The notes beneath the pieces are model-generated. The model searched no databases. It was not told where the DNA came from and worked only from the letters and a program-made list of their open reading frames with translations. Shown piece after piece: positions 9,358 to 45,382 of a stretch of DNA of 64,000 bases. This stretch comes from an uncultured Gammaproteobacteria bacterium (GTDB taxonomy: Bacteria > Patescibacteriota > Patescibacteriia > 2-01-FULL-39-33): assembly GCA_964558935.1 (NCBI GenBank), contig CAZLFP010000002.1:16356-80355 (forward strand), written 5' to 3'. A program made the position numbers and the translations under genes. Position 1 is the stretch's first letter. Each line of letters starts with the position of its first letter.

Positions 9358-11297
<1,940 letters not shown>

Positions 11298-11441: not shown

Positions 11442-12671
11442 ATGCGACGTCAGGAATTTAAAGCTTTGAGCTTGCCCAACGGTTTGGACATATATTACTT
11501 GCGAGATAAGACTGTTAGTTTTGTCAGCCTGAAAATACTGCTGGCTGTAGGTAGTGAAGATAATTTGCCTGATCGTAATGGCTATGCCCATGCAGTGGAA
11601 CATCAGTTCTTTCATATCCCTAGCCTTGATGGCAAAAGTTTGTTGGATCATTGCAAAAAACTGGGTTACAAGATTAACGCTTCAACTGGACCCAGTTGGG
11701 TAGAGATTGAGCTTAAAGTGCCAACGACAGCTTTTGTTGAAATCTGGCCGTTGGTTCTGGAAATGATGACCTGTCCTCAATTGGGCACAGGCCTAAAAAA
11801 GGAAAAACAGGTAATTATCCAGGAAAGAATAGGTAATTCCACCATCTCTTTTTACGGCGCTATCTTTGGTCGAGCAGCTGAGGAGTACGGTAATCCTAGC
11901 TTAGCCTGCTTATCCCCTGATTGTCGTTTAGGAACAAACCAGGACATATTGGGGATGACATCACAAAAACTGTCAACTTTTTGGCGAAAGCACTTTGCCA
12001 ATAGCGTCAGATATCTCATAGTAACTGGTAATTGCGATCTGGAGATGATAGCTCATGATCTTAGCCAGTTGCCAGCTTTTGTAGCACCAAACAGGTCAGC
12101 GGAATTACCGATTCCGCCAGACCAAACAGTGCACCGCCTGTCTCTAAAAGAGAGTACTGGGGTGGTCAGACCCGAGCCCGGTGTTCTCATGTCTCCTCTT
12201 ATGATTTGGCCGTGCCGCACTTGTCAGGATTTGGATTTGATCAGTGATCTGATCGAGGATTTACTGCGCCGTCAGTTGTTTGAATTGATTCGCAATCAGA
12301 CAGGTGGTATGTACGACCTTAAATTCGAATCCTTTTTCAAACAGGAGGTTAAAATCATGCTTGGTATGTCTGTTTTACCCTTGAAAACAGGCAGTCAACT
12401 CATACAGCAGGTGGTGGATCAGGTTTTCTGTCAGAAGTTGTCTCAAGAGTGGTTTGCAGTCTCCAAACAGGCTCAGCTAATCGATCTTGAGGTGCTTGAC
12501 CAAACCCTGGGTAACAGGCTGGTTGAAACCAAACAGATGCTGGCAGATCATGGACAGATTCTAACCTTGAAACAACAGGTGGATTTCTATCAGAATTTGA
12601 CCTACCAGCAGGCAGATGAAGTTTGGTCTGTCATGCGTGACAGACTGCTCATGTTTGATATCCAACCCTAA
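11442..12671 (+). CDS. M16-family (pitrilysin/insulinase-like) zinc peptidase
   Basis: Inverted zincin motif HAVEH near the N-terminus. 409 aa. Confidence 0.65.
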   Translation: MRRQEFKALSLPNGLDIYYLRDKTVSFVSLKILLAVGSEDNLPDRNGYAHAVEHQFFHIPSLDGKSLLDHCKKLGYKINASTGPSWVEIELKVPTTAFVEIWPLVLEMMTCPQLGTGLKKEKQVIIQERIGNSTISFYGAIFGRAAEEYGNPSLACLSPDCRLGTNQDILGMTSQKLSTFWRKHFANSVRYLIVTGNCDLEMIAHDLSQLPAFVAPNRSAELPIPPDQTVHRLSLKESTGVVRPEPGVLMSPLMIWPCRTCQDLDLISDLIEDLLRRQLFELIRNQTGGMYDLKFESFFKQEVKIMLGMSVLPLKTGSQLIQQVVDQVFCQKLSQEWFAVSKQAQLIDLEVLDQTLGNRLVETKQMLADHGQILTLKQQVDFYQNLTYQQADEVWSVMRDRLLMFDIQP

Positions 12672-12745
12672 TCCATTTAAGTGGCTACTCAGCTAGTAGC
12701 CACTTTTTTTAATCCTGTAAATATTTATGGTATAATGTAAACAAT

Positions 12746-13159
12746 ATGCAAGACACTCCAAACTGGGAAAAGATAGATTTTACCATTTATTTCTCCTTCT
12801 TAAAATGGCCGGTTATTCTGGCTATTGTCTTGGAATTGTTTTTAAGAAGCTGGGCTTGGTATCAAGTGGGTATTGTTTCAGATAATTTAGATATGCTGGT
12901 TTGGCTGGTCAGATTACTGATCTTAACCGTCATTGGTTGGCGCGTTATCAAGAATTTTGGCGGTCATACAGCCGTCGCAGCCATGGCCGGTGCTTTAGCT
13001 GGTTTGCAAATCGGTTTGGTTGTATCAGTCTCGCGTTTGTTGGGAGGCTTGCAAGTTTGGAAAATATTTAACATTGTAACCGAAACCACTGTCTTAGCTG
13101 TTATTGGATCATTAATGGCCATTGCCATTACTTTTATTTTTACAGATCGTCGTAATTAA
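12746..13159 (+). CDS. Small integral membrane protein (hypothetical)
   Basis: 137 aa with four predicted TM helices. Confidence 0.5.
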   Translation: MQDTPNWEKIDFTIYFSFLKWPVILAIVLELFLRSWAWYQVGIVSDNLDMLVWLVRLLILTVIGWRVIKNFGGHTAVAAMAGALAGLQIGLVVSVSRLLGGLQVWKIFNIVTETTVLAVIGSLMAIAITFIFTDRRN

Positions 13160-13170
13160 TAACATACTAA

Positions 13171-13488
13171 ATGACTAAAAAAACTTTTGACAAAAAAGAT
13201 ATTGAAGACAACAAAGGTGTAGCTGCTATCTCATATCTATTCCTACTTTGTCTGGTACCTTTATTTTTAAAAAAAGACAGTCCTTATGCTCAAGCTCATG
13301 CCAAGCAAGGTTTGTCTATGTGTATTTTGTGGTTACTGGGAGTCTTTTTTTTCTGGATTCCCCTCTTCGGTTGGTTGCTTTGGCTAGTTATGTTTTTTAC
13401 CGCCATCATGTCAGCTTTGAAAGCTTGGAATGGTGAATATTGGGAAATACCTATTATTAAAGAAATTACCAAAGCCCTTAATTTATGA
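13171..13488 (+). CDS. Small integral membrane protein (DUF4870-like, tentative)
   Basis: 105 aa. Two TM helices. HAKQG motif. Confidence 0.45.
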   Translation: MTKKTFDKKDIEDNKGVAAISYLFLLCLVPLFLKKDSPYAQAHAKQGLSMCILWLLGVFFFWIPLFGWLLWLVMFFTAIMSALKAWNGEYWEIPIIKEITKALNL

Positions 13489-17370: not shown

Positions 17371-17402
17371 AGCAGCCTGCTTTTTCGCAGGCTGTTTTTT
17401 GT
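17371..17402 (+). terminator. Rho-independent terminator after ppsA
   Basis: CAGCCTGC tttttc GCAGGCTG followed by TTTTTTG. Confidence 0.75.
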
Positions 17403-17403
17403 T

Positions 17404-17436
17404 TTGACATGATTGAAAAAGTAGTGTACAATGAAA
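17404..17436 (+). promoter_or_regulatory. Promoter TTGACA, 17 nt, TACAAT driving the GC-rich small-ORF locus
   Basis: Read directly. Begins 2 nt after the ppsA terminator. Confidence 0.55.
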
Positions 17437-17469
17437 AGTACGATTTTAAAAAAGAAAGGAGGGATAAGG

Positions 17470-17523
17470 TTGGAAGAGTCGACCAAACGCGGACCGCCGA
17501 AGTACACCAGATTCCATGGTTAG
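17470..17523 (+). CDS. Candidate 17-aa peptide (MEESTKRGPPKYTRFHG) with perfect SD; TTG start
   Basis: AAAGGAGGG lies 6 nt upstream of TTG. It terminates at TAG. Could be a leader peptide or a spurious ORF. Confidence 0.2.
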   Translation: MEESTKRGPPKYTRFHG

Positions 17524-17559
17524 GCCACCAAGGATCACAACAGGAGATGTGTATGAAGG

Positions 17560-17657
17560 CGAAGATTGAGCAGTTGGAACTGGTCAAGGAGAACAAGCGG
17601 AAATCTGGTCGCGAACCTCATCGGCGGCCCAAGCATCTGATCAAGGGAGGGAAGTGA
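17560..17657 (+). CDS. Candidate small basic protein (about 32 aa, K/R-rich)
   Basis: CAGGAG SD lies 6 nt upstream of ATG. Sequence MKAKIEQLELVKENKRKSGREPHRRPKHLIKGGK. GC-rich. Confidence 0.3.
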
Positions 17658-17854
17658 TGGGTCAAAAACAGCTTTATGAGTACCGGGTCAATTGGCTGGA
17701 GAATGGACAAGTTCAGACAGCGCTGTTGGAGATGACCCAAGCCGAGGGGTTGCAGTACCGGAGGGTGCTAATCAACAAGCCCGGCGTTTCGAATGTCAGT
17801 ATCACTAGCAATGGCCCGGTTCGGCCAGAGCTGCAACCGGTCATGACTGGCTAA
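17657..17854 (+). CDS. Hypothetical 65-aa protein, translationally coupled (GTGATGG overlap)
   Basis: AAGGGAGGG SD lies 5 nt upstream of ATG. Elevated GC. No known motif. Confidence 0.45.
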   Translation: MGQKQLYEYRVNWLENGQVQTALLEMTQAEGLQYRRVLINKPGVSNVSITSNGPVRPELQPVMTG

Positions 17855-17862
17855 CACAATTA

Positions 17863-17897
17863 AGCCTGGTTATTTACTCATAATAGCCAGGCTTTTA
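17863..17897 (+). terminator. Putative terminator (7-bp stem AGCCTGG/CCAGGCT, long loop, TTTT)
   Basis: Read directly. Weaker than the other terminators in the window. Confidence 0.35.
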
Positions 17898-17933
17898 AAA
17901 TTGCTTTACAGCTCCAAGTCTATTACAATATAG

Positions 17934-18734
17934 ATGACTATGATAAATTTTTTACACACCTTTAATCCTCAGCCCATTTTTCTGGACTTGGGACCCATCA
18001 GTATTCGGTACTACGGTCTTCTAATTTGCGTGGGTTTAATCTTAGCTCTAATTTTGGTTGAACATTTGGCAAGATTAAAAAAAATTAACTTAGACGTGTA
18101 TGAATTGGGTTTTGTTTTGGCTTTATTTGGAATTTTAGGCGCCAGGTTATATGAAGTGGTGATTATTAATTGGTCATACTATGCTCAAGATTTACTAAGT
18201 ATATACAAAATATGGCAGGGTGGCTTAGCTATTCATGGCGCAGTAATTGCCGGTTTGTTGGTGCTTCTGTTTTACAGTCGTAAATATCATCTGCAATTTT
18301 GGTCTTTAACAGACATTATTGCTCCCGCTTTAGCTCTGGGTCAAGCCATTGGCAGATGGGGTAATTATTTTAACCAAGAATTGTACGGTAGACCAACTGA
18401 CGTAGCTTGGAGTATTCCAATTCAGCCGGCTAACAGATTGCCCGGTTACGAGCAGTTTATGTATTACCACCCGACTTTTTTGTATGAATCCCTTATGAAT
18501 TTAGGCCTATTTATTTTACTTTTTATACTGGTTAAAAAGGTTAAACAACCGGGTATTGTCACCTTGGTTTATTTGGCTGGGTATATGATGATACGGTTTA
18601 TAACTGAATATGTCAGGATAGATCCCACACCTCAGATTCTGGGTTTTAGATTACCTCAGTTGGCCGGTGTAATCATTTTTGGCTTTGTGTTAGGTATATA
18701 TTTATCTAATTTTAAACAAAAAAAGACTGTTTAA
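17934..18734 (+). CDS. lgt: Prolipoprotein diacylglyceryl transferase
   Basis: 266 aa, polytopic. Signature GRWGNYFNQELYG. Confidence 0.9.
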   Translation: MTMINFLHTFNPQPIFLDLGPISIRYYGLLICVGLILALILVEHLARLKKINLDVYELGFVLALFGILGARLYEVVIINWSYYAQDLLSIYKIWQGGLAIHGAVIAGLLVLLFYSRKYHLQFWSLTDIIAPALALGQAIGRWGNYFNQELYGRPTDVAWSIPIQPANRLPGYEQFMYYHPTFLYESLMNLGLFILLFILVKKVKQPGIVTLVYLAGYMMIRFITEYVRIDPTPQILGFRLPQLAGVIIFGFVLGIYLSNFKQKKTV

Positions 18735-18787
18735 ATGTAATTTATGATCAACAACAAATACGTCTGATGGCGTATTAGTTGTTATTA

Positions 18788-18816
18788 TTGACAAAAATCT
18801 TATTTTATGATATAAT
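18788..18816 (+). promoter_or_regulatory. Consensus promoter TTGACA, 17 nt, TATAAT for the GC-rich four-gene cassette
   Basis: ttgaca aaaatcttattttatga tataat read directly. Confidence 0.6.
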
Positions 18817-18926
18817 TATATATTCAATTAATCGTATTTATTCCCTTATTTGGCCTCTTTTCTGCCAAGTAAAAAGGGTGAAAGGAGGGAGTAATTTGAC
18901 AATGTATCAAATACAGGAGACTGTAA

Positions 18927-19181
18927 ATGGAGATTCGCGAAGTAGGTCGCAACTACCTGGCAGTCTTTGTTCAGGTAGTGAAAGAGAACAAACAGGGCAG
19001 AAAGGTCCCGGTGCCACGCATTGGGGTCTTGCAAGATTATGCCGGCAAAGTTCGGCGCCGTGTGACCAGTCGGGATGGTCATCTGACCTTGTGGATCCAT
19101 GCCTTTCATGGTACGGAAAAGCAAGTGAGGTTGACTGTCCACAACCAACCCAACGTAACTAAGCTGGTTAGTTGGGAATAG
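18927..19181 (+). CDS. Hypothetical 84-aa basic protein (cassette gene 1)
   Basis: CAGGAG SD lies 7 nt upstream of ATG. Its stop sits immediately before the next gene's SD. An alternative-frame ORF (18896-19162) was judged spurious. Confidence 0.5.
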   Translation: MEIREVGRNYLAVFVQVVKENKQGRKVPVPRIGVLQDYAGKVRRRVTSRDGHLTLWIHAFHGTEKQVRLTVHNQPNVTKLVSWE

Positions 19182-19190
19182 GAGGTAGTA

Positions 19191-19718
19191 ATGGCTCGAA
19201 ACCAGGGAGGCCAACCAGGCCAACAAACCAAGAAGGTGACCTGCAAAGGATGCGGTCGCCTCAATGAGGACGGTAATAAGTATTGCCCGTCCTGCGGCTG
19301 TGATCCAAAGTCCGGTAAGAAAGCCGGACCGACGAAAATCGAGTTCGAGATCGAGGTTACCTATAGTGGTGACTTTGGTCGCTACAACATCCGAGTCCAG
19401 GTCACCAAGAACGGCCAGGGTGAGGATGATGGAAAGGTATGGGTCAGCGGTTTTAAGCCGACTGACAAGGTGGTTGTTGGTTCAAATACCAACACATCCG
19501 GTGGGTGTCCCACCCACCTGGAACTGGATTTGGTCAAGGGCTTTACCACCTTTGACTATGAGTTTCAGGGTGGTAAACGTTTGCTTGAGTTTGCCGCCTG
19601 CGGTAACCAGGCTAACACCTATCTCAAGCTGCGTGGTCCCAAGTATACCTCGCAGCCTAACCAACGTTTTTGGCAGCGGTTGCGTGAGAGCATCCGCCAC
19701 AAACAAGGGAGAGATTAA
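19191..19718 (+). CDS. Hypothetical protein with N-terminal zinc ribbon (CKGCG-x10-CPSCGC) and beta-rich C-terminal domain (cassette gene 2)
   Basis: Strong SD TAGGAGGT lies 4 nt upstream of ATG. 175 aa. GC about 55-60%. Confidence 0.6.
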   Translation: MARNQGGQPGQQTKKVTCKGCGRLNEDGNKYCPSCGCDPKSGKKAGPTKIEFEIEVTYSGDFGRYNIRVQVTKNGQGEDDGKVWVSGFKPTDKVVVGSNTNTSGGCPTHLELDLVKGFTTFDYEFQGGKRLLEFAACGNQANTYLKLRGPKYTSQPNQRFWQRLRESIRHKQGRD

Positions 19719-19719
19719 C

Positions 19720-20412
19720 ATGTTTCTTTACTTCCTGCTGTTTGGGCTGGCCTGTTTGGCAGCCGTATTCTGTCTGGTTTGCCAGTGTATCTGGGGAGAC
19801 AGGCAGGAACCAGACGCGAATGGCCAGATCCGGATCTACAATCCGGGCATCGAGTTCCTTGCGTCGGTTCGAACCAATAATAACTGGTGGCCACTTCTGA
19901 CCCTGGTTATTCCAACCTTCTTTTGGGGAGCTTTTCTGGTCAGTGGTTTCGGCAGTCCCCCAATCACCACCACTGTGCGGGAAGCCTACGATTGGAGTTA
20001 CCAGCAGGCACAACCGCTGGGACAATCCAGTCGATTCAAGCGCACGGTGTTGGCTGTCGTGAGTGGCGGCAACACAGAATTGGAAGAGCTGCAAACTGAT
20101 ACCCAGCAAAAAAACTGGGTAGAACAGCTTGCACCTAAACCAATTCCCATTGTCTACCGGACCTGGTTTTGGTTTAAGGCGGCTCTGTTAACCAGCTTTC
20201 TCTGGTTGATGTTGTCGCCACTCTGCTTGGTTGACGAGCTGGTGATGGCCGCTAAAGAAGCGACCAAGCGCCAGACTGCGAAAGGAAAGGCGAAGGGTAG
20301 TTCCGGAGAGGCCGGAACAAGTTCCGGCGGATATAACATGACGTGGGACTGGATCGGTGATTTCGGTTCTGCGTTCTTTGGATACTGGTTGTCGTCGCTC
20401 AGTCGGCGATAA
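19720..20412 (+). CDS. Hypothetical polytopic membrane protein (cassette gene 3)
   Basis: ATG is 1 nt after the upstream stop (taaCatg) with GGGAGAG upstream. At least three hydrophobic helices. The ORF-track N-terminal extension from 19264 overlaps gene 2 and was rejected. Confidence 0.55.
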   Translation: MFLYFLLFGLACLAAVFCLVCQCIWGDRQEPDANGQIRIYNPGIEFLASVRTNNNWWPLLTLVIPTFFWGAFLVSGFGSPPITTTVREAYDWSYQQAQPLGQSSRFKRTVLAVVSGGNTELEELQTDTQQKNWVEQLAPKPIPIVYRTWFWFKAALLTSFLWLMLSPLCLVDELVMAAKEATKRQTAKGKAKGSSGEAGTSSGGYNMTWDWIGDFGSAFFGYWLSSLSRR

Positions 20413-20428
20413 AGCAAGGAGAACAGTT

Positions 20429-21277
20429 ATGGCTGATAACGAAGTCAAATTCTCTTTCGGAGTGAAAGAGATTATCGTCACGGTGGTGACCTTGGTGTTG
20501 GTGGTTTTGTTGGTTTCCGCCACCGTGGGAAATCACAAACTGGGCTTTTTGGCGGCATCGGTCGTGTTGAGCATCGTGCTCAACAAGTATCTGTTGTCTG
20601 TCGAGAAGCAGGGTACAGCCATCGGCAGGTGGCTAAAGCAAAACAAGGTTAAGGAGTGGTGTCTGTTTGGCATCATTCTGCTGATCTTGCTCTTCCTGTT
20701 TATCAGTACGCTGGCTATCGATCCGTTTGACATGCTCAGGCAGATCGGCAGTCAGCCTAATCAAGGACAAGCTGACAACCAGCGAATCACCTTTCTCTTG
20801 CTGGCAGTCATTGTCTTCGGCTGCATAAGCTATGAGATGATTTTTGCCAACAAGCACAAGAAGAAGTTTTGGTTCTTGTGCGCAGTATTGCTGGCGTTGA
20901 TGCTGCCCACCTACAGTCTGCCGACTCAGGAGGCTGTCAAGAGTGTAAAGCAGGTCAGCAGTCATGTAAATCATTGGGTTAAGGCAGAGTCGGCTGCTTT
21001 AAAACCTAAGCCTCAAGCTCCGAGGGGGCCACGCGTGGTCTGCCGTAAGGAGGTTGAGGTAAAACCGGGTGAAAATACGACCGATGTGCTGCTGACTCAA
21101 GGCCAGCTCATTCGGCACTATTTCACACCCACAACCCCCACGATTTCATGGGCACCGGACGGAGAACCGACCAAGCAAGGTCAGCTGTTCGGTCCGGTGA
21201 GTGGTACCTACTACCACAACATCCACGTAATAGATCAAAGGTCGGGTTCGGTCATCGTCGAGGTGATTGAGCCCTAA
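20429..21277 (+). CDS. Hypothetical polytopic membrane protein with C-terminal soluble domain (cassette gene 4)
   Basis: AAGGAGA SD lies 6 nt upstream of ATG (MADNEVKF). Five predicted TM helices followed by an approximately 100-aa hydrophilic tail. Confidence 0.55.
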   Translation: MADNEVKFSFGVKEIIVTVVTLVLVVLLVSATVGNHKLGFLAASVVLSIVLNKYLLSVEKQGTAIGRWLKQNKVKEWCLFGIILLILLFLFISTLAIDPFDMLRQIGSQPNQGQADNQRITFLLLAVIVFGCISYEMIFANKHKKKFWFLCAVLLALMLPTYSLPTQEAVKSVKQVSSHVNHWVKAESAALKPKPQAPRGPRVVCRKEVEVKPGENTTDVLLTQGQLIRHYFTPTTPTISWAPDGEPTKQGQLFGPVSGTYYHNIHVIDQRSGSVIVEVIEP

Positions 21278-21283
21278 CCGCAA

Positions 21284-21334
21284 CGGCGGGAAAGTTCGTA
21301 TACTTTCCTGCCGTTTTCTATTTATCTTTTTTTT
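21284..21334 (+). terminator. Rho-independent terminator closing the cassette
   Basis: CGGCGGGAAAGT tcgtat ACTTTCCTGCCG (12-bp stem with one G:U pair) followed by a T-rich tract. Confidence 0.75.
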
Positions 21335-21353
21335 GGTATAATACACTATAATA

Positions 21354-21809
21354 ATGAATACTAAAATTATGCAAAAAATTATCATTTTCTTAATGCTATT
21401 TACAGCCTTGTTTTCACTGGCTGCTACTGTAAACGCGCAACCCGCCATGATGACAGCTGGTCCAGGTGGTGGTATCGGAGGAGGAAACACTCCACCCTTG
21501 GGCGGTGGTAACACTCCCCCAGCAGTTTCAGGTGGCGGCTCTGCTGTTGAATTGAGCAATCCTTTGAATAATGAAGGCAGTCTTGAAAAAACGGTTAATA
21601 ATATCATCACTTCAGTTTTGGGAATTACCGGTGTACTGGCTTTACTGGCTTTTATTTACGGCGGTGTACTTTGGATGATTTCATATGGAGACACGGCCAA
21701 AATTCAAAAAGGCAGAACCACCATGATTTGGGCAGTGGCCGGTCTGCTCATAATCTTCAGTGCCTACGCCATTATTAATTTGGTCTTTGACGCTTTGGGA
21801 GTACAGTAA
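21354..21809 (+). CDS. TrbC/VirB2-like (T4SS-type) pilin candidate
   Basis: Signal peptide ending AATVNA. Gly/Pro-rich linker. Two C-terminal TM helices separated by a short loop. 151 aa. Extended -10 TGGTATAAT upstream. Terminator downstream. Confidence 0.55.
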   Translation: MNTKIMQKIIIFLMLFTALFSLAATVNAQPAMMTAGPGGGIGGGNTPPLGGGNTPPAVSGGGSAVELSNPLNNEGSLEKTVNNIITSVLGITGVLALLAFIYGGVLWMISYGDTAKIQKGRTTMIWAVAGLLIIFSAYAIINLVFDALGVQ

Positions 21810-28939: not shown

Positions 28940-30025
28940 TTACTTTTTGCCCAGGCGCTTCCAAGGCAACGGGCGTTGACGCTCGATGTGTTCGAGACGC
29001 CCGTAAATATCGTTCAGCTCTTGCTGAACGGTTGCTCCAGCAGCAGTCATAGCCGCTTCAGTCACCGCATTGGCTTGATCATGGACAGCCTGTTGGGCTG
29101 CCTGAGCCGATGTTGCAGCCGACTCTGCCGCAGCAGTCGAGGCGGCCAGCGAAGAGAAAGCTGTTCTCAAAGCCTTATCTTCGAAGTCGTTATTCTTGTC
29201 ATTGCAGAGCAAGTCCACCTCGCTCTCTCCATAGACTCCAGCCACTGCGGCCTCTTCGATAACCCTCACTCTGCCCATAATCTTGTCCAGCTCAGTCCGG
29301 GAGCGGGACTTATGGGTGTTCAAATCCGTTTGTACGGATTTGATGGACCTGGCATTGGCCTGGATGTCGGTGTAGAGGTCTGAGTAAACCTTGTCGATAC
29401 TGTCCAGGCTTCTAATGCCTGCTTGTAAGACATAGGTTTGGACCTCGGTAAATTTTTCCGTGTTAGCCAGGTCATTGATTTCCAGGTCAGTGGCTTCCGG
29501 ATAGGCAGCCTTGGCAAGAATCTTCTTGTCTTGCTTCAACTCACCCTGGACATCTAGCAGGTTCGAGTCCAGAACCTGGATCTGGTCTGCCGCATCCGTG
29601 AGTGTGATGGGGCACTCTTCCTGTTCGAAGTTCCAGAATTCTTTGAACTTGCCGCTGATATTGGCGGCCAGTTCACCGGCATCCTGGGCTTCTCTCGTCG
29701 CCGCCCTGGCCGTCTGGTTCGCTCGGTAGGTGAACCAAGCGGACACGAGAAGTCCGGCGATCAGCATGCACATTAGGACCCAGGCCAGACCAAGACTCAC
29801 TCCCAGCCTGTTGATCCGCCAAGACTCATTCGGTTGCGGTTGGGTATCATCTACCGCGTCGGCCGTCTTGTTGAGCTCAGAGATGTCTTTCTCTGTCTGC
29901 TTAATGGCCGTTGACACGGCCATCATTTCTTCCTGCTCTTCATCTGTCGGCTTCTCGATTGACTCGAGAGCCGCCAACTGCCCTTTCAGGCGTTGTAGAT
30001 CTGCCTGCAGTTCATCCAGGTTCAT
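28940..30025 (-). CDS. Hypothetical coiled-coil membrane protein encoded in a GC-rich (about 55%) segment
   Basis: 361 aa. N-terminal coiled coil. Single TM (LGVSLGLAWVLMCMLIAGLLVSAWF). Long extracytoplasmic coiled-coil and Ala-rich tail. Confidence 0.55.
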   Translation of the reverse strand: MNLDELQADLQRLKGQLAALESIEKPTDEEQEEMMAVSTAIKQTEKDISELNKTADAVDDTQPQPNESWRINRLGVSLGLAWVLMCMLIAGLLVSAWFTYRANQTARAATREAQDAGELAANISGKFKEFWNFEQEECPITLTDAADQIQVLDSNLLDVQGELKQDKKILAKAAYPEATDLEINDLANTEKFTEVQTYVLQAGIRSLDSIDKVYSDLYTDIQANARSIKSVQTDLNTHKSRSRTELDKIMGRVRVIEEAAVAGVYGESEVDLLCNDKNNDFEDKALRTAFSSLAASTAAAESAATSAQAAQQAVHDQANAVTEAAMTAAGATVQQELNDIYGRLEHIERQRPLPWKRLGKK

Positions 30026-30274: not shown

Positions 30275-33200
30275 ATGGCTACTAAGCAAAAGTCAGAAAC
30301 CCCTGCTGCACAAGAACAGTTGTCAGCTCAAGAGGGAGGCGATTTATCTCAGATGAGATCAAGCACTCTTGGCATGTTGCAAGAAACGATAGCTGAAGCA
30401 GATCCCACCCATCAACATTTTGAGGATTTTACTGAAACTGATCTAGCTGGATTAGATGAGGATCAGTTAAGTGAGTTACAAGTATACTTTGAGGTGTTAC
30501 AAGATAAATTCAGCTCGGAAAACATAGATGAGCAACAGACTGAGTATATTGAACAGATTGTGGCGGCTCTGGCACAATTCTTACCTGAAAAACTGGTGCG
30601 AGAAAAGTGTCTGGATTATCGGGAAGTGGAAGAACCATCGGGTGAGGTTGAGTCTTCATCTGTGACAACTGCAGAACAACGGGAGCAAAAGACTCAACAG
30701 GCAGTTGAGTATTTTAAGTATTTATTTGATCAGGCGGTGCGAGATCATGACCTGACTACCGTTGAAGCCATTAAAGATTTCAATGCCGGTGATGGTACAC
30801 AGGAGGTGGGCGTGGATCTGATTTACAAACGAGTGTATGAAGAATACAAGCGAGCGGAGATGGATGACCAGAGTTTTGATGAACAAACCGAAACATATTT
30901 AATTAATCATATGAGAAGACTAATTGACCGCAGACCAGATCGTCAGCCAACAAAGCCAGAAACCGTAGAAGACAAAACACAAGAGCTGACTGATGCCCTG
31001 ATCACAGAATTTGAGCGTGAGGTCGAGCAATATAATTTGATGGAATATTCCAATCTGAAACAGTACATACAAAATAGAGAAGTTGCTTCTTTGACCAAGA
31101 GAATCTTAGAACAGCATGCTGATTGGCAGTTTAATAAAAACCAAGCTATAGATGATTTCCAAGAATATGTTGCAAGGTTTGTCAGCGAAATTAAAGATGG
31201 TCGTGAACAGGTAACAACAGCTGAAAATTCAGCTGAACAAGAGCAGAATGAAGTTGCAGAAGCAGTCGCTTACTTTCAAGAATTATTGGACTATTATGTA
31301 GAAAACAAAGTTTCCAACAAAATAGAATTTAATAGTTCAGTTATGCTTGGCTTAAGAGACAAGCTTAAAGATGATGTTTTGCATCGGTATGATTTAAAAG
31401 GTCAGGCTTTGGATGATTTTGATCAGCAAGTGCAAGCATATTACAAACAAGTTTTTGAGGCTTTACCTGATGAAGAAACAGATTCAGGATCTACTAAAGT
31501 TAATCCATTTAGAGATAAATTGAAAAGAATAAAAGAGCAAGAACAAAAACCACCGGCGGCAACTCCTGAACAAACACCACCGGCGGCAACTCCTGAAGCT
31601 CCAGATGAAACAAGTGTGAGTCCTCAAGAACAGCAGCCTCAAGAGCCAGAACCAGTTAAGGTTAAAGTTACAGATCGTAGAGCTGGTAATGTAGAAAGGC
31701 AAACAATAGTAAAGGAAGCTAACCAGCGTGAAATAAAAGAAACACAACCTGAAGAGCAAGATGATTTTTATCCTGCGGAAGCTGAAGCTCACGGTTGGGA
31801 ACCAGATGGTGAGCAACCCAAATCAATTACTCCAGAAGAAAGCGCTAAACCAATTGCCCCAGAAGTAAGCGCTGAGTTAGAAGTCAACCTAGAACAAGCC
31901 AGAATCGCCTATTACCAAGCTAGAATGCAAAACAAAAAACCGGCAGACTTAGAGCCTTTAAGACAAGCCTACGAAGCAGCTTTAAGAGTTAAGATTGAAG
32001 CTCAAGTGGATCGTGGCAATACAGAGTCAGCAATTGCAAATCAAATGTTGGAGGCATATCAACAGGAAGAAAAACAGATTGAAGAGCTATATGGAGAGCA
32101 TACCGGATCTTGGTGGGAAAAGAAACTGGCTTGGATTAATAAGCAGGCTGGTAAACGTATGGCTGTAGGTTTAAGCATGTTGGGTGCAAATACAGCTTTA
32201 TGGGGAGTAACTAAATTGGCGCCTGAGCTGTTATCTGCCGTACCGGTAGTTGGTACAGTAACAACTATTACTCGTATTCCTTTAAGCTTTTTAGGTGGAG
32301 TGGCATTAGCTGAAGGTTTAATGGCTAGATCATATGAAAGAGGTATAACCACAGATGTTTACAATAAGTTAAAGAAAAAACATTCCAAAGGCATTTTGTG
32401 GTGGCGGAAAACAGATCATGATGCGATAAAACAAGAAATTCCTGATGCTATCGGGAACATTGAGTTACCTGAATTGCAGAAGGAACTGTCTAAATTAAGA
32501 GTGATTGCCGAGCGCAAAGGCGGTAGACGGCAAGAGGTGTTTGGAGCGGGCTATTCGGATGTCGCTGAAGCTATCTACCAGAAAGCTATTGTGGAAATGG
32601 CAGCTCGTTTTACCAGGATGGAACAAGAGCAGCGCGATGATTCTCAAGAGGATGAACAGGTTAAGGCTCAGTTGCTAAACAGCATGTTAGACGACTACCT
32701 GGGTGATGTACATCTGGCAGAAGAAGCCGAGGGTCGCAAAGATAAAGCGGTTGCAAAAAGACGTATGGCCATCTCCCTAGCGGCTGGTACAGCTTTAGCC
32801 GCCTTTCCGGCTAATCGTTTAATTACCGGTTGGGGCGGAGCAGAAATCGCTGACGCCAGCGGTGTGGATTCTGAATTAATGGCTTATAATACTCCACCGG
32901 CAGTTGACACTCCGTCCGAATTAGACATGGCCCCAGATCAGACAGGTGTGGAAGCTTCTGTCGGGCCCAGAGATCTTGTATTACCAGCTGAACCGGATTT
33001 AACACTGGCTCAAGAGTTTGGTCAATCCCATGCTTTACTTGAAGCAACCGGAGCAGAAATTCAGGTTGAAGCGGGTGGCCCTATCCAAGTTACTTACGAG
33101 ATTGGAGCCGGCAAAGACTTTGCGCACTTAGACCAAGCCTTAAGAAGATTGGTCGTTCAAGAGTTCAATGTCGGACAGGATAATACTTTCAGTGCTCTTG

Positions 33201-34687
33201 AAGCCGGACAGGCTGAAAACGTTTTAGCTAATTTAAGAACTTTGTTGGAAGGTAATCCGGTAGCCGGTTTTAAACCCGAAGATATTAAGGGGGTGGTGAG
33301 TTATGCGGACGGTAAGCTGGTGGTACAGGATTACGAGCAATTTGAAGGCTTGTATGGTAAGTTGTTAGGCCATGCGCAAGAAATCATCACTGAAGAGTCA
33401 GGAGCTTTGGATCATATAAATGCTACCTCAGTTAAAAACTGGGAAAAGATGTTTGCTCTCAAAGATTCGGTCAACACTGCTGATGTAGATTTTAATAGCT
33501 TTGTGTCTGACGCTGGCCCAACCCAGCCCGGCATGTCCATGCCTCAGCCAGTAGATGGTGCTGCGCCTGAGCCAACTCCCTTGGCGATGAGTGAAGCAGC
33601 TGCTGTGCCAGAAGTAGGAGTCGAGGTGGAAATACCGACAGCTGAAACACCATCACCGGTAGAGGTTCAAATTGAACCAGACAGCATGTCTGAAACCGTG
33701 CCGGTTGAAACAAGTGGTTCACTTGACAGTTTGTATGCACCATCTGCGGAAGTACCTGCTGAATCAGTCGGGGAGGCTGCAGTTCTATCTGCAGAAAACA
33801 TGGATCACATAACTAGCGAGATGTTGGCTGACATGCAGACACCACAGAACGATATAACCCAGATGTTTCTAAACAATGAACTTGAGAAATTAAATGCCCA
33901 GGTTCAGGGTAAACTTCATGTTTTTAAAGAAATAACGGATGGTAAGCTTGCGATTACTTTAAGTATAGGAAATGAGCCGGTTGAAATGATAATCGATGGC
34001 TCATCTGTCGCTGATCTAAATGATCAATTTTCACCTGAGTTACAAAGTCAAGTTGCAACCATTGTTAAGAATATAGTTGAAGTTAAAGAAACCGCTGGAT
34101 TTGACAACGGAGAAGAAGCGTTGAAATTCATGAATTTGATTAGTGCCGTACAAGACACAGATGAAAGTCAGATGGCAGTTTTTTACCAAGGCGTAAAGTG
34201 TGAGCCAGTGGGTATATTAGCCAAGGAATATGTAGGTAGTTGGCTTCAAACAGCTAAGCAGCAAGAGATATTTGAACATTTGTTAGCTACATCTAAAGAA
34301 AATATTGATTACCAACAAATTGCCAATATTATCAAAGTCACAGGTAAAAGTGTTCTACCAGGCGGAGGAGAAGTCTTTTTGATGGAGAGTATAGTAGAGG
34401 GTACTACAGAGTCGTTAGAACCAATTTTGGGAGATTTAGTACATAGCGACACTACCGTACCGGTTGTTGACAATTTGCGTAACGTAACGATTGAAAATCT
34501 GGGTCCGCATAATTTAAAGCTGACTCTAGAGTATGGAATGCGAAGGCCACAAGCGATTATCGAATATATTCAAGGAGATAGATTGGTTAGAGAGCAATTT
34601 GATGTTTCCGGAACGTTTGGTAACAGTTTTGATAATGCTTTAGAATACATGCGAAATTTCGATCCCAAGGTAAGACTTGAATTGTAA
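30275..34687 (+). CDS. Giant (1470-aa) highly acidic hypothetical protein with central TM hairpin
   Basis: Uninterrupted ORF. Glu/Asp/Gln-rich. Tandem repeat PPAATPE(Q/A). Hydrophobic segment around residues 620-680. Extended -10 TGGTATAAT upstream. Confidence 0.7.
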   Translation: MATKQKSETPAAQEQLSAQEGGDLSQMRSSTLGMLQETIAEADPTHQHFEDFTETDLAGLDEDQLSELQVYFEVLQDKFSSENIDEQQTEYIEQIVAALAQFLPEKLVREKCLDYREVEEPSGEVESSSVTTAEQREQKTQQAVEYFKYLFDQAVRDHDLTTVEAIKDFNAGDGTQEVGVDLIYKRVYEEYKRAEMDDQSFDEQTETYLINHMRRLIDRRPDRQPTKPETVEDKTQELTDALITEFEREVEQYNLMEYSNLKQYIQNREVASLTKRILEQHADWQFNKNQAIDDFQEYVARFVSEIKDGREQVTTAENSAEQEQNEVAEAVAYFQELLDYYVENKVSNKIEFNSSVMLGLRDKLKDDVLHRYDLKGQALDDFDQQVQAYYKQVFEALPDEETDSGSTKVNPFRDKLKRIKEQEQKPPAATPEQTPPAATPEAPDETSVSPQEQQPQEPEPVKVKVTDRRAGNVERQTIVKEANQREIKETQPEEQDDFYPAEAEAHGWEPDGEQPKSITPEESAKPIAPEVSAELEVNLEQARIAYYQARMQNKKPADLEPLRQAYEAALRVKIEAQVDRGNTESAIANQMLEAYQQEEKQIEELYGEHTGSWWEKKLAWINKQAGKRMAVGLSMLGANTALWGVTKLAPELLSAVPVVGTVTTITRIPLSFLGGVALAEGLMARSYERGITTDVYNKLKKKHSKGILWWRKTDHDAIKQEIPDAIGNIELPELQKELSKLRVIAERKGGRRQEVFGAGYSDVAEAIYQKAIVEMAARFTRMEQEQRDDSQEDEQVKAQLLNSMLDDYLGDVHLAEEAEGRKDKAVAKRRMAISLAAGTALAAFPANRLITGWGGAEIADASGVDSELMAYNTPPAVDTPSELDMAPDQTGVEASVGPRDLVLPAEPDLTLAQEFGQSHALLEATGAEIQVEAGGPIQVTYEIGAGKDFAHLDQALRRLVVQEFNVGQDNTFSALEAGQAENVLANLRTLLEGNPVAGFKPEDIKGVVSYADGKLVVQDYEQFEGLYGKLLGHAQEIITEESGALDHINATSVKNWEKMFALKDSVNTADVDFNSFVSDAGPTQPGMSMPQPVDGAAPEPTPLAMSEAAAVPEVGVEVEIPTAETPSPVEVQIEPDSMSETVPVETSGSLDSLYAPSAEVPAESVGEAAVLSAENMDHITSEMLADMQTPQNDITQMFLNNELEKLNAQVQGKLHVFKEITDGKLAITLSIGNEPVEMIIDGSSVADLNDQFSPELQSQVATIVKNIVEVKETAGFDNGEEALKFMNLISAVQDTDESQMAVFYQGVKCEPVGILAKEYVGSWLQTAKQQEIFEHLLATSKENIDYQQIANIIKVTGKSVLPGGGEVFLMESIVEGTTESLEPILGDLVHSDTTVPVVDNLRNVTIENLGPHNLKLTLEYGMRRPQAIIEYIQGDRLVREQFDVSGTFGNSFDNALEYMRNFDPKVRLEL

Positions 34688-36209: not shown

Positions 36210-36620
36210 TAGCTGAATTATTAATCGGGTGGAGATGAGGAGTAATGAACTCCTGTCTGGCAATAAGCGAAGTAAATCAGTTGACAAGTTTTTGCTCTTT
36301 GAATGTTTTAAGCTACAACCTAACTAAAGAGCGAGATAGTCATAGCCGAAGTCTGTAAGTTTAAATAACTTACCCAGACTAAGCAAGTTACCGAGCCTAA
36401 GAATATGACACCGCTACCAACCATATAGGCCTAAGCTGGGCGATGGCTGTCAGCTTATTTAAGCAACAGCTGGTGCCAAAGCTAAACCGCTAAAAGCAGT
36501 TTTGACTCTAGCTAATAAGTTTTTTGCACTTATCTGGTGATGGTTTTTGACCTGGTTGCCAACAAACCGGACTTGCTGATTTACCTGTTATTCCCATCGA
36601 ATCATAACATCCCCAAGATA
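36210..36620 (-). promoter_or_regulatory. Long (about 400-nt), moderately GC-rich 5' UTR of the infC-rpmI-rplT operon; candidate L20-leader-type autoregulatory RNA
   Basis: No ORF in the segment. Position equivalent to the L20 leader of Firmicutes. Not verified by motif. Confidence 0.25.
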
Positions 36621-43985: not shown

Positions 43986-44642
43986 TTAGCTTTGAGGCTG
44001 TTTAGTCTTCTTTTCCTCCAGGAATTGGCGTCCCTTGCCCACATCCGTGTTGACCGGAGTGTTTGTCTGACACAGCGGGCACTCATCTGCCGACCAGCTC
44101 TTGATCTCTTGCTGAACCAAGCTGACAATCTTGGGCGGCTCGCCAACTTGTTCGTAGCCGGTTACATCCCGCTCCCAGAGTAGAGCCAGACCGGTAATGA
44201 TACCACCATGCTGTCTGCCCAGTTCCACCACTTGCTTGGCAGATTTGCCGGTAGTCATGATATCTTCCACCACCAGGATTCTCTGGTCTTTGATCCACTG
44301 GTCGTAACCGCGACGGATTTCAAAGCCACCTTCCTGATTCTTCTCAGCGTAGATCGCTTTGACTTGTCGTCCCGTAATCAGGGACAGATGCAGGGCAACA
44401 TACTGAGCCAGAATAATGCCACCCAAGGCCGGTCCCAAAACCGTGTTAATCTTGTCAGTGGCAAATTCCCAAGCCAGCAGACTGCACATGCCTGAGATAA
44501 CTCCGGGATCGGTGTAGACCGCATCCTTGTTAACATAGGTGTCACTGTGACGACCTGAGTTTAGGACAAAGTGACCTTGTCGCAAAGCTCCGGCTCGCTT
44601 GAAAAGATCCTTGATCTGTTCATGTGCTTGATGTCCCGGCAT
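43986..44642 (-). CDS. pyrE: Orotate phosphoribosyltransferase with C-terminal extension
   Basis: PRPP-binding motif ILVVEDIMTTGKS. 218 aa. GC-rich coding relative to the background. Confidence 0.85.
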   Translation of the reverse strand: MPGHQAHEQIKDLFKRAGALRQGHFVLNSGRHSDTYVNKDAVYTDPGVISGMCSLLAWEFATDKINTVLGPALGGIILAQYVALHLSLITGRQVKAIYAEKNQEGGFEIRRGYDQWIKDQRILVVEDIMTTGKSAKQVVELGRQHGGIITGLALLWERDVTGYEQVGEPPKIVSLVQQEIKSWSADECPLCQTNTPVNTDVGKGRQFLEEKKTKQPQS

Positions 44643-44644
44643 GA

Positions 44645-45382
44645 TTATTCTCCTCGTCCTGCCTGTGAGATTTCTTCGGCAATGCGTTTGGCCGCTTCCA
44701 CCGGTGAACCCATTTCCTCCGGCGGTTGGGTAATGGGTCGTCCAATGACCAAGTAATCTGCTCCGTCTTCAATCGCTTGCTCGGGAGTGGTGATTCTCTG
44801 CTGGTCATTGGAAGCTGCCCACTTGGGACGGATGCCCGGGGTAATGAATTCCAATTCCTGCAATTCCAGTTGCTGTCTAAGGAGTTTCAGTTCCTGCGGT
44901 GAACAGATAATGCCGTCACAACAGGCCGAGTCAGCATCGCGTGCCAACTGTAAAACCTTGGCCTTGCTGGGCGCTCCGAATATGAGGTGAGCCTGGTTTT
45001 CTTCCAGTGAAGTCAGGACCGTAACAGCCCAGATAAAGGTTGATTCTTGGAGCAACTTTGCGGTCTCGCTCGCTTGAACTGCTTGTTGCATAGCTTTGAT
45101 ACCGCAGGACGCATGGACATTTAAGGCATAGACGCCCAAATCAATTGCAGCTTGGGTAGCCGCTTTAACCGTATTGGGAATGTCACAGAACTTGCCGTCA
45201 TAGAAAACCTTGCCTCCGAGCTGGTGAACAGTTTCAACAACTTGAGGCGCTCCAAATTTGGTAATGGCTTCCAAGCCGATCTTGAACAGCCCGACCTGGT
45301 CATGTAATTGTTCGACCAGCTTTTTGAGCTGATCCAAATCGCTGACATCCAGAGCTACAATAATTCTGTCTTTGGGTTGCAT
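44645..45382 (-). CDS. pyrF: Orotidine-5'-phosphate decarboxylase
   Basis: DRIIVALDV ... LFKIGLE N-terminus, catalytic Asp/Lys region. 245 aa. GC-rich. Confidence 0.85.
   Translation of the reverse strand: MQPKDRIIVALDVSDLDQLKKLVEQLHDQVGLFKIGLEAITKFGAPQVVETVHQLGGKVFYDGKFCDIPNTVKAATQAAIDLGVYALNVHASCGIKAMQQAVQASETAKLLQESTFIWAVTVLTSLEENQAHLIFGAPSKAKVLQLARDADSACCDGIICSPQELKLLRQQLELQELEFITPGIRPKWAASNDQQRITTPEQAIEDGADYLVIGRPITQPPEEMGSPVEAAKRIAEEISQAGRGE

Follow-up and report, generated by a model that had tools for sequence, protein, structure and literature searches.

Introduction

Variable loci for surface structures, such as the O-antigen and capsule loci, are replaced by homologous recombination between conserved flanking genes. 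Here we describe a locus that behaves like these recombining variable surface loci in contig CAZLFP010000002.1 (GenBank assembly GCA_964558935.1), deposited as an uncultured Gammaproteobacteria bacterium and placed by GTDB in the Patescibacteriota. The stretch analyzed, hereafter the window, comprises 64,000 nt (positions 16,356 to 80,355 of the forward strand), and coordinates given without a locus name are counted from its first nucleotide. The subject is a cassette of four genes, g1 to g4, located between lgt and the gene for a VirB2-like type IV secretion system (T4SS) pilin; g2, g3 and g4 form a triad that recurs in other Patescibacteria. As in the O-antigen and capsule loci, the slot between conserved genes is fixed, alleles diverge among close relatives, identical alleles occur in diverged backgrounds, the base composition is atypical and the breakpoints are mosaic. 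Unlike in those loci, the cargo consists of three small proteins without known family rather than sugar-pathway enzymes, the GC content lies above that of the genome and not below it, and a conserved structured leader precedes the variable part.

VARTIG, a hypervariable Ig-domain gene module of Thermococcales, offers a second comparison. Its variability was attributed to intergenomic recombination, and a role in conflict or self/non-self recognition was proposed (PMC8416519). The triad shares with VARTIG its restriction to certain lineages, a function that is not known, a protein with an Ig-like domain and hypervariability by recombination. In contrast to VARTIG, g2 is small, predicted to be cytoplasmic and zinc-ribbon-bearing, the triad contains two polytopic membrane proteins at a fixed lgt/pilin address, and no polymorphic-toxin-like layout is present; no sequence relationship between the two was detected. 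Zinc-ribbon or double-zinc-ribbon proteins (PF13240, PF12773) fused to Ig-like domains of the Big_1/invasin type also resemble g2, which scores below the Pfam cut-offs and gives a generic fold match at 10-12% identity. Unlike Ig-domain adhesins, g2 lacks a signal peptide and a transmembrane (TM) segment.

VirB2-like pilins and a T4SS-like apparatus are among the few systems reported to be essential for epibiotic growth of a cultivated Patescibacterium (as summarized in PMC12102498). These pilins are widespread and variable in Patescibacteria and partly unlinked from virB4, and non-pilin genes are interspersed in their arrays (PMC12102498). The neighbour of the triad is likewise a PF18895/PF04956 pilin, itself highly variable, whereas the triad genes match no T4SS profile tested. 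Patescibacteria also retain homologous recombination and competence, and exchange genes mostly among themselves (PMC12455944). The locus is mentioned neither in the 2025 survey of Patescibacteria T4SS (PMC12102498; "zinc" and "Lgt" occur 0 times each) nor in the study of horizontal gene transfer and genomic islands in Patescibacteria (PMC12455944).

Results

Distribution and address of the g2-g3-g4 triad

The cassette genes are located on the + strand at 18927-19181 (g1, 84 aa), 19191-19718 (g2, 175 aa), 19720-20412 (g3, 230 aa) and 20429-21277 (g4, 282 aa). When the four proteins were concatenated and compared exhaustively with 1.84e9 representatives by phmmer, seven distant homologues of g2 were recovered (E 1.4e-17 to 4e-4, 32-41% identity), and g3 and g4 gave no match. 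Triads were reached by two independent routes, the neighbourhoods of the g2 homologues and a pilin-anchored metagenome scan combined with hidden Markov models of the families. The g2-g3-g4 triad was recovered in 10 lineages, whose loci carry L numbers below.

At locus L082 a g2 homologue, a 233-aa protein with three TM helices, a 388-aa polytopic protein and a PF18895 pilin follow each other in this order. The order is PK, Lgt, g2 homologue, 230-aa protein, 396-aa protein and pilin in L086, Lgt followed by the g2, g3 and g4 homologues in L087 and L089/L090, and g1, g2 and g3 homologues in L085. The pilin-anchored scan added L093/94/95, L097, L098 and L102, all with the order lgt-g2-g3-g4-pilin. 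The lgt gene lies 5′ of the triad in L086, L087, L089, L093, L097, L098 and L102, and a PF18895/PF04956 pilin gene lies 3′ of it in the window and in L082, L086, L093, L097, L098 and L102. Where the contigs reach, the full order is lgt, promoter, leader hairpin, g2-g3-g4 and pilin gene. The backbone groEL-orf137-PK-(pps)-lgt is syntenic around the triad loci; in L093 it is rearranged, yet the lgt-triad-pilin block is intact. The Lgt proteins of the triad lineages are about 50-65% identical to one another. A genome scan anchored on PpsA found no close sibling (best match 64% identical) and yielded an empty-site relative, L003. Judged from these gene orders, g2-g3-g4 is a rare triad specific to Patescibacteria, with a fixed address between lgt and a VirB2-like pilin gene.

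Exchange of the coding part between genomes

Pairs of related loci revealed where identity is lost and regained. Between L089 and L102 the Lgt proteins are 89% identical, and g2, g3 and g4 only 38%, 31% and 50%. At the DNA level, identity is 86-95% through lgt and the leader up to the start codon of g2, becomes undetectable for about 2.2 kb, and returns at 89% from within g4 into the pilin gene. The converse was observed between L093 and L095, with a cassette that is 100% identical over about 2.5 kb, a backbone at about 96% and a pilin region at 54-89%. Between L093 and L094 the flanks are 100% identical, and a tract at 66-88% comprises the 3′ end of g2, g3 and the 5′ end of g4. The breakpoints thus vary by genome pair and fall at the start codon, inside g2 or inside g4. 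No integrase, transposase or other recombinase gene is present between lgt and the pilin gene, and the direct or inverted repeats flanking the cassette are short, of low identity and at chance level. Breakpoints that differ, together with the lack of a recombinase and of boundary repeats, point to homologous and not to site-specific recombination. We show by these pairwise alignments that the coding part is exchanged between genomes by homologous recombination between conserved flanks.

The ratio of nonsynonymous to synonymous substitution rates (dN/dS) between alleles is 0.39 for g2, 0.11 for g3 and 0.22 for g4, compared with 0.18-0.24 for lgt and 0.37 for the pilin gene. Values of 0.11-0.39 mark the triad genes as real, functional genes under purifying selection within allele lineages.

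The pilin gene varies as well. The pilins of L093 (9977-10414) and L095 (9253-9708) are 62% identical in amino acid sequence (dN/dS 0.37) in a DNA backbone of ∼96% identity, and their N-terminal (mature, exposed) part diverges most. This makes the VirB2-like pilin gene a hotspot of diversity in its own right. Compared with L089, L102 has an insertion of ∼1.65 kb between lgt and the leader (L102 3861-5613), which encodes a 429-aa polytopic protein without known family and is bounded by a ∼50-bp direct duplication (L089 852-905 corresponds to L102 3861-3913 and 5560-5613).

Promoter and leader RNA

A consensus sigma-70 promoter with an extended -10 element (TTGACA-17-TATAAT, TG at 18808-18809, match 12/12) is located at 18788-18816 on the + strand. 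In the window, the exact extended -10 pattern is present 3 times, at an expectation of 0.03. A matching promoter precedes the first cassette gene in 9/10 triad lineages, with the form TTGACA-17-TGnTATAAT in eight lineages and TTGACT in L097; it was not found in L102.

The promoter is followed by an AT-rich 5′ leader of about 105-110 nt (18817-18926, + strand). Across the triad loci the 5′ untranslated regions measure 113-165 nt and, in the leader alignment, share an element of ∼55 nt, in which a pyrimidine-rich arm pairs with a purine-rich arm in single-sequence minimum-free-energy folds. This conserved hairpin corresponds to 18839-18893 in the window, and its structure was derived from the single-sequence folds and drawn by hand; RNAalifold on full-length leaders predicted no consensus structure. 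In an alignment of eight sequences, 76% of the cells were paired, versus 70% in shuffled alignments (1/500) and 52-62% with slid partners, and nine pairs changed on both sides (17/500). These statistics give moderate support to the predicted pairing, and the composition of the two arms raises the baseline. A covariance model of the leader, R1, found a match in each of the 12 triad loci searched (E from 4.5e-11 to 7e-4; window E 3e-10), including L102, which was outside its training set. Reverse-strand matches at the same sites excepted, it gave no other match below 1e-3 in 622 kb of sequence, in which the whole window and about 45 further pilin loci were contained. No Rfam family reached its gathering threshold in the leader region, and permissive E-values yielded chance-level miRNA or snoRNA matches far below threshold. 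The window and L085 share an identical hairpin, though their g1 proteins are 32% and their g2 proteins 24% identical.

An open reading frame (ORF) of 88 codons overlaps g1 in another frame (18884-19162 with its upstream site). It would start at TTG 18896, 7 nt past a strong GGAGG (18884-18888). We judged it non-coding, with a GC content at third codon positions (GC3) of about 0.35 and a low-complexity product; the GGAGG lies in the purine arm of the leader hairpin.

Base composition

The GC content of the cassette is 0.51-0.53 (0.475-0.57 in 200-nt windows), versus 0.366 for lgt and 0.439 for the pilin gene. The preliminary description, made from the letters and ORFs of the window, had set it at 55-60%; the contrast is real and that figure overstated. 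The cassette genes have GC3 values of 0.58-0.65, whereas 69 ORFs of the window have a median of 0.40 (sd 0.08) and lgt has 0.35. Expression-linked codon bias was ruled out as the cause of the high GC3, because GC3 is only 0.36 in groEL (0.39 in the pilin gene).

The same excess was observed in all relatives. The cassette lies 5-14 GC points above the rest of its own locus in 10/10 triad lineages, as in the window (0.518/0.409), L082 (0.510/0.370) and L093 (0.553/0.446). Since the excess is present in every triad lineage, a single recent foreign donor cannot account for it, and the earlier use of raised GC as a donor signature fails. The horizontal acquisition proposed on that ground is right in so far as horizontal exchange is involved, and wrong as a one-off foreign insertion, because homologous operons hold the same slot in 10 lineages. 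Relatives with these genes at a likewise raised GC content in a conserved locus come close to what the preliminary description had named as its refutation. The recombining locus keeps its GC excess stably, and the excess does not mark a recent donor. It may come from GC-biased gene conversion at a recombination hotspot; a common, GC-richer flexible gene pool is suggested as an alternative source.

Other GC-rich units were observed in the window and its relatives. Between pps and lgt (17400-17900, GC 0.50-0.54) lies a second mini-unit with its own promoter (TTGACA-17-TACAAT, 17405-17433) and terminator (17862-17894), which contains two tiny ORFs with Shine-Dalgarno sequences, at 17553-17657 (34 aa) and 17657-17854 (65 aa, GC3 0.66). 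In L003 the pps-lgt gap (12450-13450) is occupied by another GC-rich pair, whose members are a FabA-like hotdog protein and an ORF of 67 aa. An orphan gene at 28940-30025 (- strand, GC 0.54, GC3 0.63), with a promoter at 30150-30122 (TTGACA-17-TACACT) and a terminator with a 15-bp stem (28935-28903), encodes an acidic, coiled-coil-like protein of 361 aa with one TM helix. It has no Pfam match, and its sole PADLOC match, to LmuB, is weak (E 2.7e-4) and probably a coiled-coil artefact. At 43986-45382 (- strand), a pyrE-like phosphoribosyltransferase gene and pyrF (orotidine monophosphate decarboxylase) have GC3 values of 0.57 and 0.52, so that compositional islands here include housekeeping genes too.

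Family searches and protein architecture

The proteins g1 to g4 gave nothing above threshold against Pfam, PHROGs and PADLOC, and the zinc ribbon of g2 remained below threshold. PADLOC-DB v2 had 0 matches at E <= 1 for g1 to g4; when the triads of L082 and L093 and two alternative cassettes of L116 and L100, described below, were searched at E <= 0.01, the count was again 0. When 10 g3-type and 9 g4-type proteins were compared with Pfam, TrbL/VirB6, VirB3 and VirB8 included, none matched at E <= 0.1 besides scattered single chance matches. The g4 family profile matched no PDB sequence. In a word-indexed search of 5.8e9 proteins, g2 and g4 returned only themselves, and the g2 family profile added almost nothing; contig look-ups with the exact sequences of g3 and g4 returned no record, and blastn of the cassette found no match in 50,697 phage and 72,556 plasmid records. 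The genes and the leader RNA belong to no described family, as had been stated at the outset for the genes: beyond the zinc ribbon, Pfam, PHROGs, PADLOC and the PDB sequences match nothing.

The g1 protein is basic (isoelectric point 10.7) and soluble. Its one homologue, P0015 of L085 (32% identity, E 9e-4), occupies the same position 5′ of the g2 homologue, and g1 was found only in the window lineage and L085; it is an accessory, lineage-specific add-on. The idea that g1 is a copy of the Ig-like domain of g2 was discarded, the resemblance being weak (hhalign E 0.0087, probability 4.6%).

The g2 protein consists of an N-terminal C4 zinc ribbon (C18xxC21-x10-C32xxC35GC37), an Ig-like beta-sandwich (52-148) and a C-terminal helix (160-172). 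All four zinc-ribbon cysteines are at least 90% conserved among 13 g2 homologues. The ribbon scores 14.8-17.4 bits against PF13240, PF12773 and PF17032 (cut-offs 25-29) and weakly resembles the nucleic-acid-binding ribbons of ribosomal proteins (E 0.0035-0.1). No member of the family has a TM segment, and g2 is predicted to be cytoplasmic.

The g3 protein has three conserved TM helices, an invariant N54, part of an NNN motif that precedes TM2, and a conserved E173 that follows TM3. In the family, a loop of 68-94 aa is predicted outside and the tail inside (positive-inside topology). Because hhalign gave a probability of 97% (E 4.5e-11), g3 is clearly homologous to its positional counterparts. 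The g4 protein has five TM helices followed by a beta-rich C-terminal tail of 117 aa; members of its family mostly have five TM helices, and their beta-rich C-terminal region spans 117-270 aa. KR-rich loops join TM2 to TM3 and TM4 to TM5, and by the positive-inside rule the C-terminal domain is therefore predicted outside. The basic TM2-TM3 loop of the window g4 is a diverged form of the family consensus LExLEKDSAxKR, and the middle domain carried by its homologues is absent. A single-sequence AlphaFold2 model of g4 was of low confidence (pLDDT 56.6) and too poor for a fold search.

Operon boundaries and genomic context

The ORF coordinates of g1 to g4 coincide exactly with the NCBI gene calls on the 145-kb contig. 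The intergenic gaps g1/g2, g2/g3 and g3/g4 are 9, 1 and 16 nt, and by our reading of the sequence a Shine-Dalgarno element of the AGGAG/GGAGG type precedes each start. The unit ends at an intrinsic terminator (21282-21334, + strand) with a 14-bp stem (21282-21315, 7 GC pairs) and a T-run behind it. The lgt-end/g1/g2/g3 junction was reproduced at 100% identity by a short, independent Logan contig, L001. The architecture given in the preliminary description is borne out by these data: a co-directional four-gene unit with these coordinates, lengths and gaps; self-contained transcription from a textbook promoter at 18788-18816 (12/12 plus the TG extension) to a strong terminator; an N-terminal CxxC-x10-CxxCGC zinc ribbon and a beta-rich domain in g2; at least three hydrophobic helices in g3, where three were found; and five TM helices with a C-terminal domain in g4.

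On the left, the conserved lgt gene (17934-18734, + strand) encodes prolipoprotein diacylglyceryl transferase (PF01790, E 2.4e-67) and is followed by a hairpin with an 8-bp stem in a terminator-like scan, probably the lgt terminator (18757-18776, + strand). On the right lies the gene for the VirB2/TrbC-type pilin (21354-21809, + strand; PF18895, E 1.1e-9, 38.7 bits with a cut-off of 26.6; PF04956, E 1.5e-7). No Shine-Dalgarno sequence precedes the pilin gene (21334-21356), and its mRNA may be leaderless or nearly so.

The context in the 64-kb window consists of housekeeping genes, and the neighbours of the cassette are PK, PpsA, Lgt, the pilin, DUF5320, DUF134, TspO and GpmI; no defence genes lie beside it. 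The window ORFs of at least 525 aa encode PpsA, TopA, FtsH, a PilB-type T2SSE protein, GroEL, GpmI and a 1470-aa protein without Pfam match, and none of these seven matches the T4SS ATPase VirB4. The 1470-aa protein (30275-34687) is acidic (isoelectric point 4.5), has no Pfam match at E <= 1e-5 and may be a large surface protein. A tmRNA gene was detected at 36227-36614 (- strand; Rfam RF00023, 102.6 bits) and was not reported by ARAGORN.

Discussion

The data establish a conserved-address operon with its own promoter and leader that is rapidly exchanged between genomes. The best reading, to which we give about an even chance, is that the triad encodes an envelope complex that is expressed strongly, diversifies and is linked to the pilin. 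The cassette is the local allele of a hypervariable, lineage-restricted operon of Patescibacteria, driven by a consensus extended -10 promoter and a structured leader and closed by an intrinsic terminator. Its products g2, g3 and g4 would form an envelope complex at the cell surface, with or beside the neighbouring pilin, and serve as an anchor, platform or specificity factor for host-cell contact or be a target of phages. The complex would be under diversifying selection. Its alleles are replaced whole or in part by homologous recombination, with the conserved lgt/promoter/leader segment as the left arm and the 3′ end of g4 plus the pilin gene as the right arm. We infer the formation of the complex, its action with or beside the pilin in host contact or in the interplay with phages, and hence the selective agent that would drive diversification.

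Several observations weigh against this reading. Gene-wide dN/dS is below 1, with no overall positive selection. The proposed tie between triad and pilin has to contend with a strong terminator that stands between them, and the pilin gene has a putative promoter of its own (extended -10 TGgTATAAT, 21334-21342), 11 nt before its ATG (21354). The site is empty in L003 and L121, where gaps of just 42 and about 40 bp separate lgt from the pilin gene; the pilin can thus do without the triad. In L116 the slot between lgt and the pilin gene is taken by an unrelated GC-rich cassette of two genes (587 + 417 aa). L100 has another (426 + 299 aa) 5′ of the pilin gene, and its lgt is located at a different site on the opposite strand. 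Each cassette has a strong promoter and no Pfam or PADLOC match, and the two fit a general cargo hotspot as well as a pilin-linked function. For the window g4, the statistics of homology to the counterparts are weak (hhalign E 0.0021, probability 13%), although it also matches them in position, five-TM layout, basic TM2-TM3 loop and a similar C-terminal beta domain; its surface exposure is a prediction from the positive-inside rule.

The L116 (6773-9792) and L100 (7503-9697) cassettes each encode a long membrane-anchored protein with an Ala/Lys/Glu-rich C-terminal region and a TM protein with a beta-rich C-terminal domain. The similarity of the 299-aa protein of L100 to g4 is not significant, and it was rejected as a relative. 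Directly 3′ of the L100 pilin gene, an ORF (10254-11096) with a YFDGDG motif resembles LAGLIDADG homing endonucleases.

Much of the same evidence would be expected of an anti-phage defence or superinfection/entry-exclusion module in a variable hotspot, the role that the cassette had tentatively been given from the sequence. Its membrane proteins would keep DNA from entering the cell or make an infection abort, g2 and g1 would recognize or bind nucleic acid, and the hypervariability would stem from an arms race with phages. It is consistent with such a module that nearly identical backgrounds carry deeply divergent alleles and that diverged backgrounds share identical ones, as are the empty sites of two relatives, the unrelated cassettes 5′ of the pilin gene (in L116 within the same slot), the atypical GC and the likeness of the g2 ribbon to nucleic-acid-binding ribbons. 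However, the proteins of the window, L082 and L093 have no PADLOC match, PHROGs gave none, and neither a nuclease, an ATPase, a protease nor another effector domain was found, which leaves the defence or exclusion reading with no positive support. Defence cargo does not usually keep to one fixed address, with promoter and leader conserved, in lineages whose Lgt proteins differ so widely, and the neighbours, being housekeeping genes, form no defence island. We consider this explanation unlikely. A highly diverged pilus machinery related to the T4SS, with g4 as a VirB6/PrgH analogue, g3 as a VirB3/VirB8-like protein and g2 as a cytoplasmic adaptor that insert or assemble the adjacent pilin, would account for the invariant adjacency to a PF18895/PF04956 pilin. 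The polytopic g4, with five TM helices and a large, predicted extracytoplasmic domain, resembles VirB6 (features as given in PMC12102498), and in some classes of Patescibacteria few VirB6 homologues, or none, are detected, for which extreme divergence was suggested (PMC12102498); this scarcity also favours the proposal.

Against it, neither family of membrane proteins gave a Pfam match and the g4 profile found no PDB sequence, the large ORFs of the window include no match to a VirB4-sized ATPase (the largest lacks any Pfam match), the pilin occurs without the triad in L003 and L121, and core machinery is not expected to swap between strains at such a rate. We regard this proposal as quite unlikely. 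Very improbable, in our view, is the remnant or cargo of a mobile element (prophage, integrative and conjugative element, or integron-like cassette) inserted once beside the pilin gene, or an assembly chimera. The self-contained unit with its own promoter and terminator, the atypical GC and its absence from L003 would suit an insertion, but no integrase or transposase is present, the flanking repeats are at chance level, the phage and plasmid records contain no match, and breakpoints that differ among pairs form a pattern of homologous and not of site-specific recombination. The junctions, moreover, are reproduced by an independent contig and by nine other lineages.

The diversifying, pilin-linked envelope complex invites a bolder extension, which we hold to be doubtful. 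The triad and its private leader would be an unrecognized partner-specificity or self/non-self system of episymbiotic Patescibacteria, in which a membrane platform anchors or gates a VirB2-like pilus and the alleles decide which hosts or phages are engaged. As a novel cis-regulatory RNA, the leader might be bound by the zinc-ribbon protein of the operon, and the locus would be a natural case of recombination-driven GC enrichment in an AT-rich, streamlined genome.

For the biology of Patescibacteria, these data suggest that (i) GC-rich islands in their AT-rich genomes need not be recent foreign DNA, which calls for caution; (ii) the locus contributes three families of proteins that Pfam lacks and an RNA motif that Rfam lacks; and (iii) a hypervariable, strongly promoted operon of membrane proteins beside a pilin gene, which strains exchange and which has a conserved leader RNA of its own, is a concrete and testable candidate for a determinant of specificity in host recognition or phage resistance.

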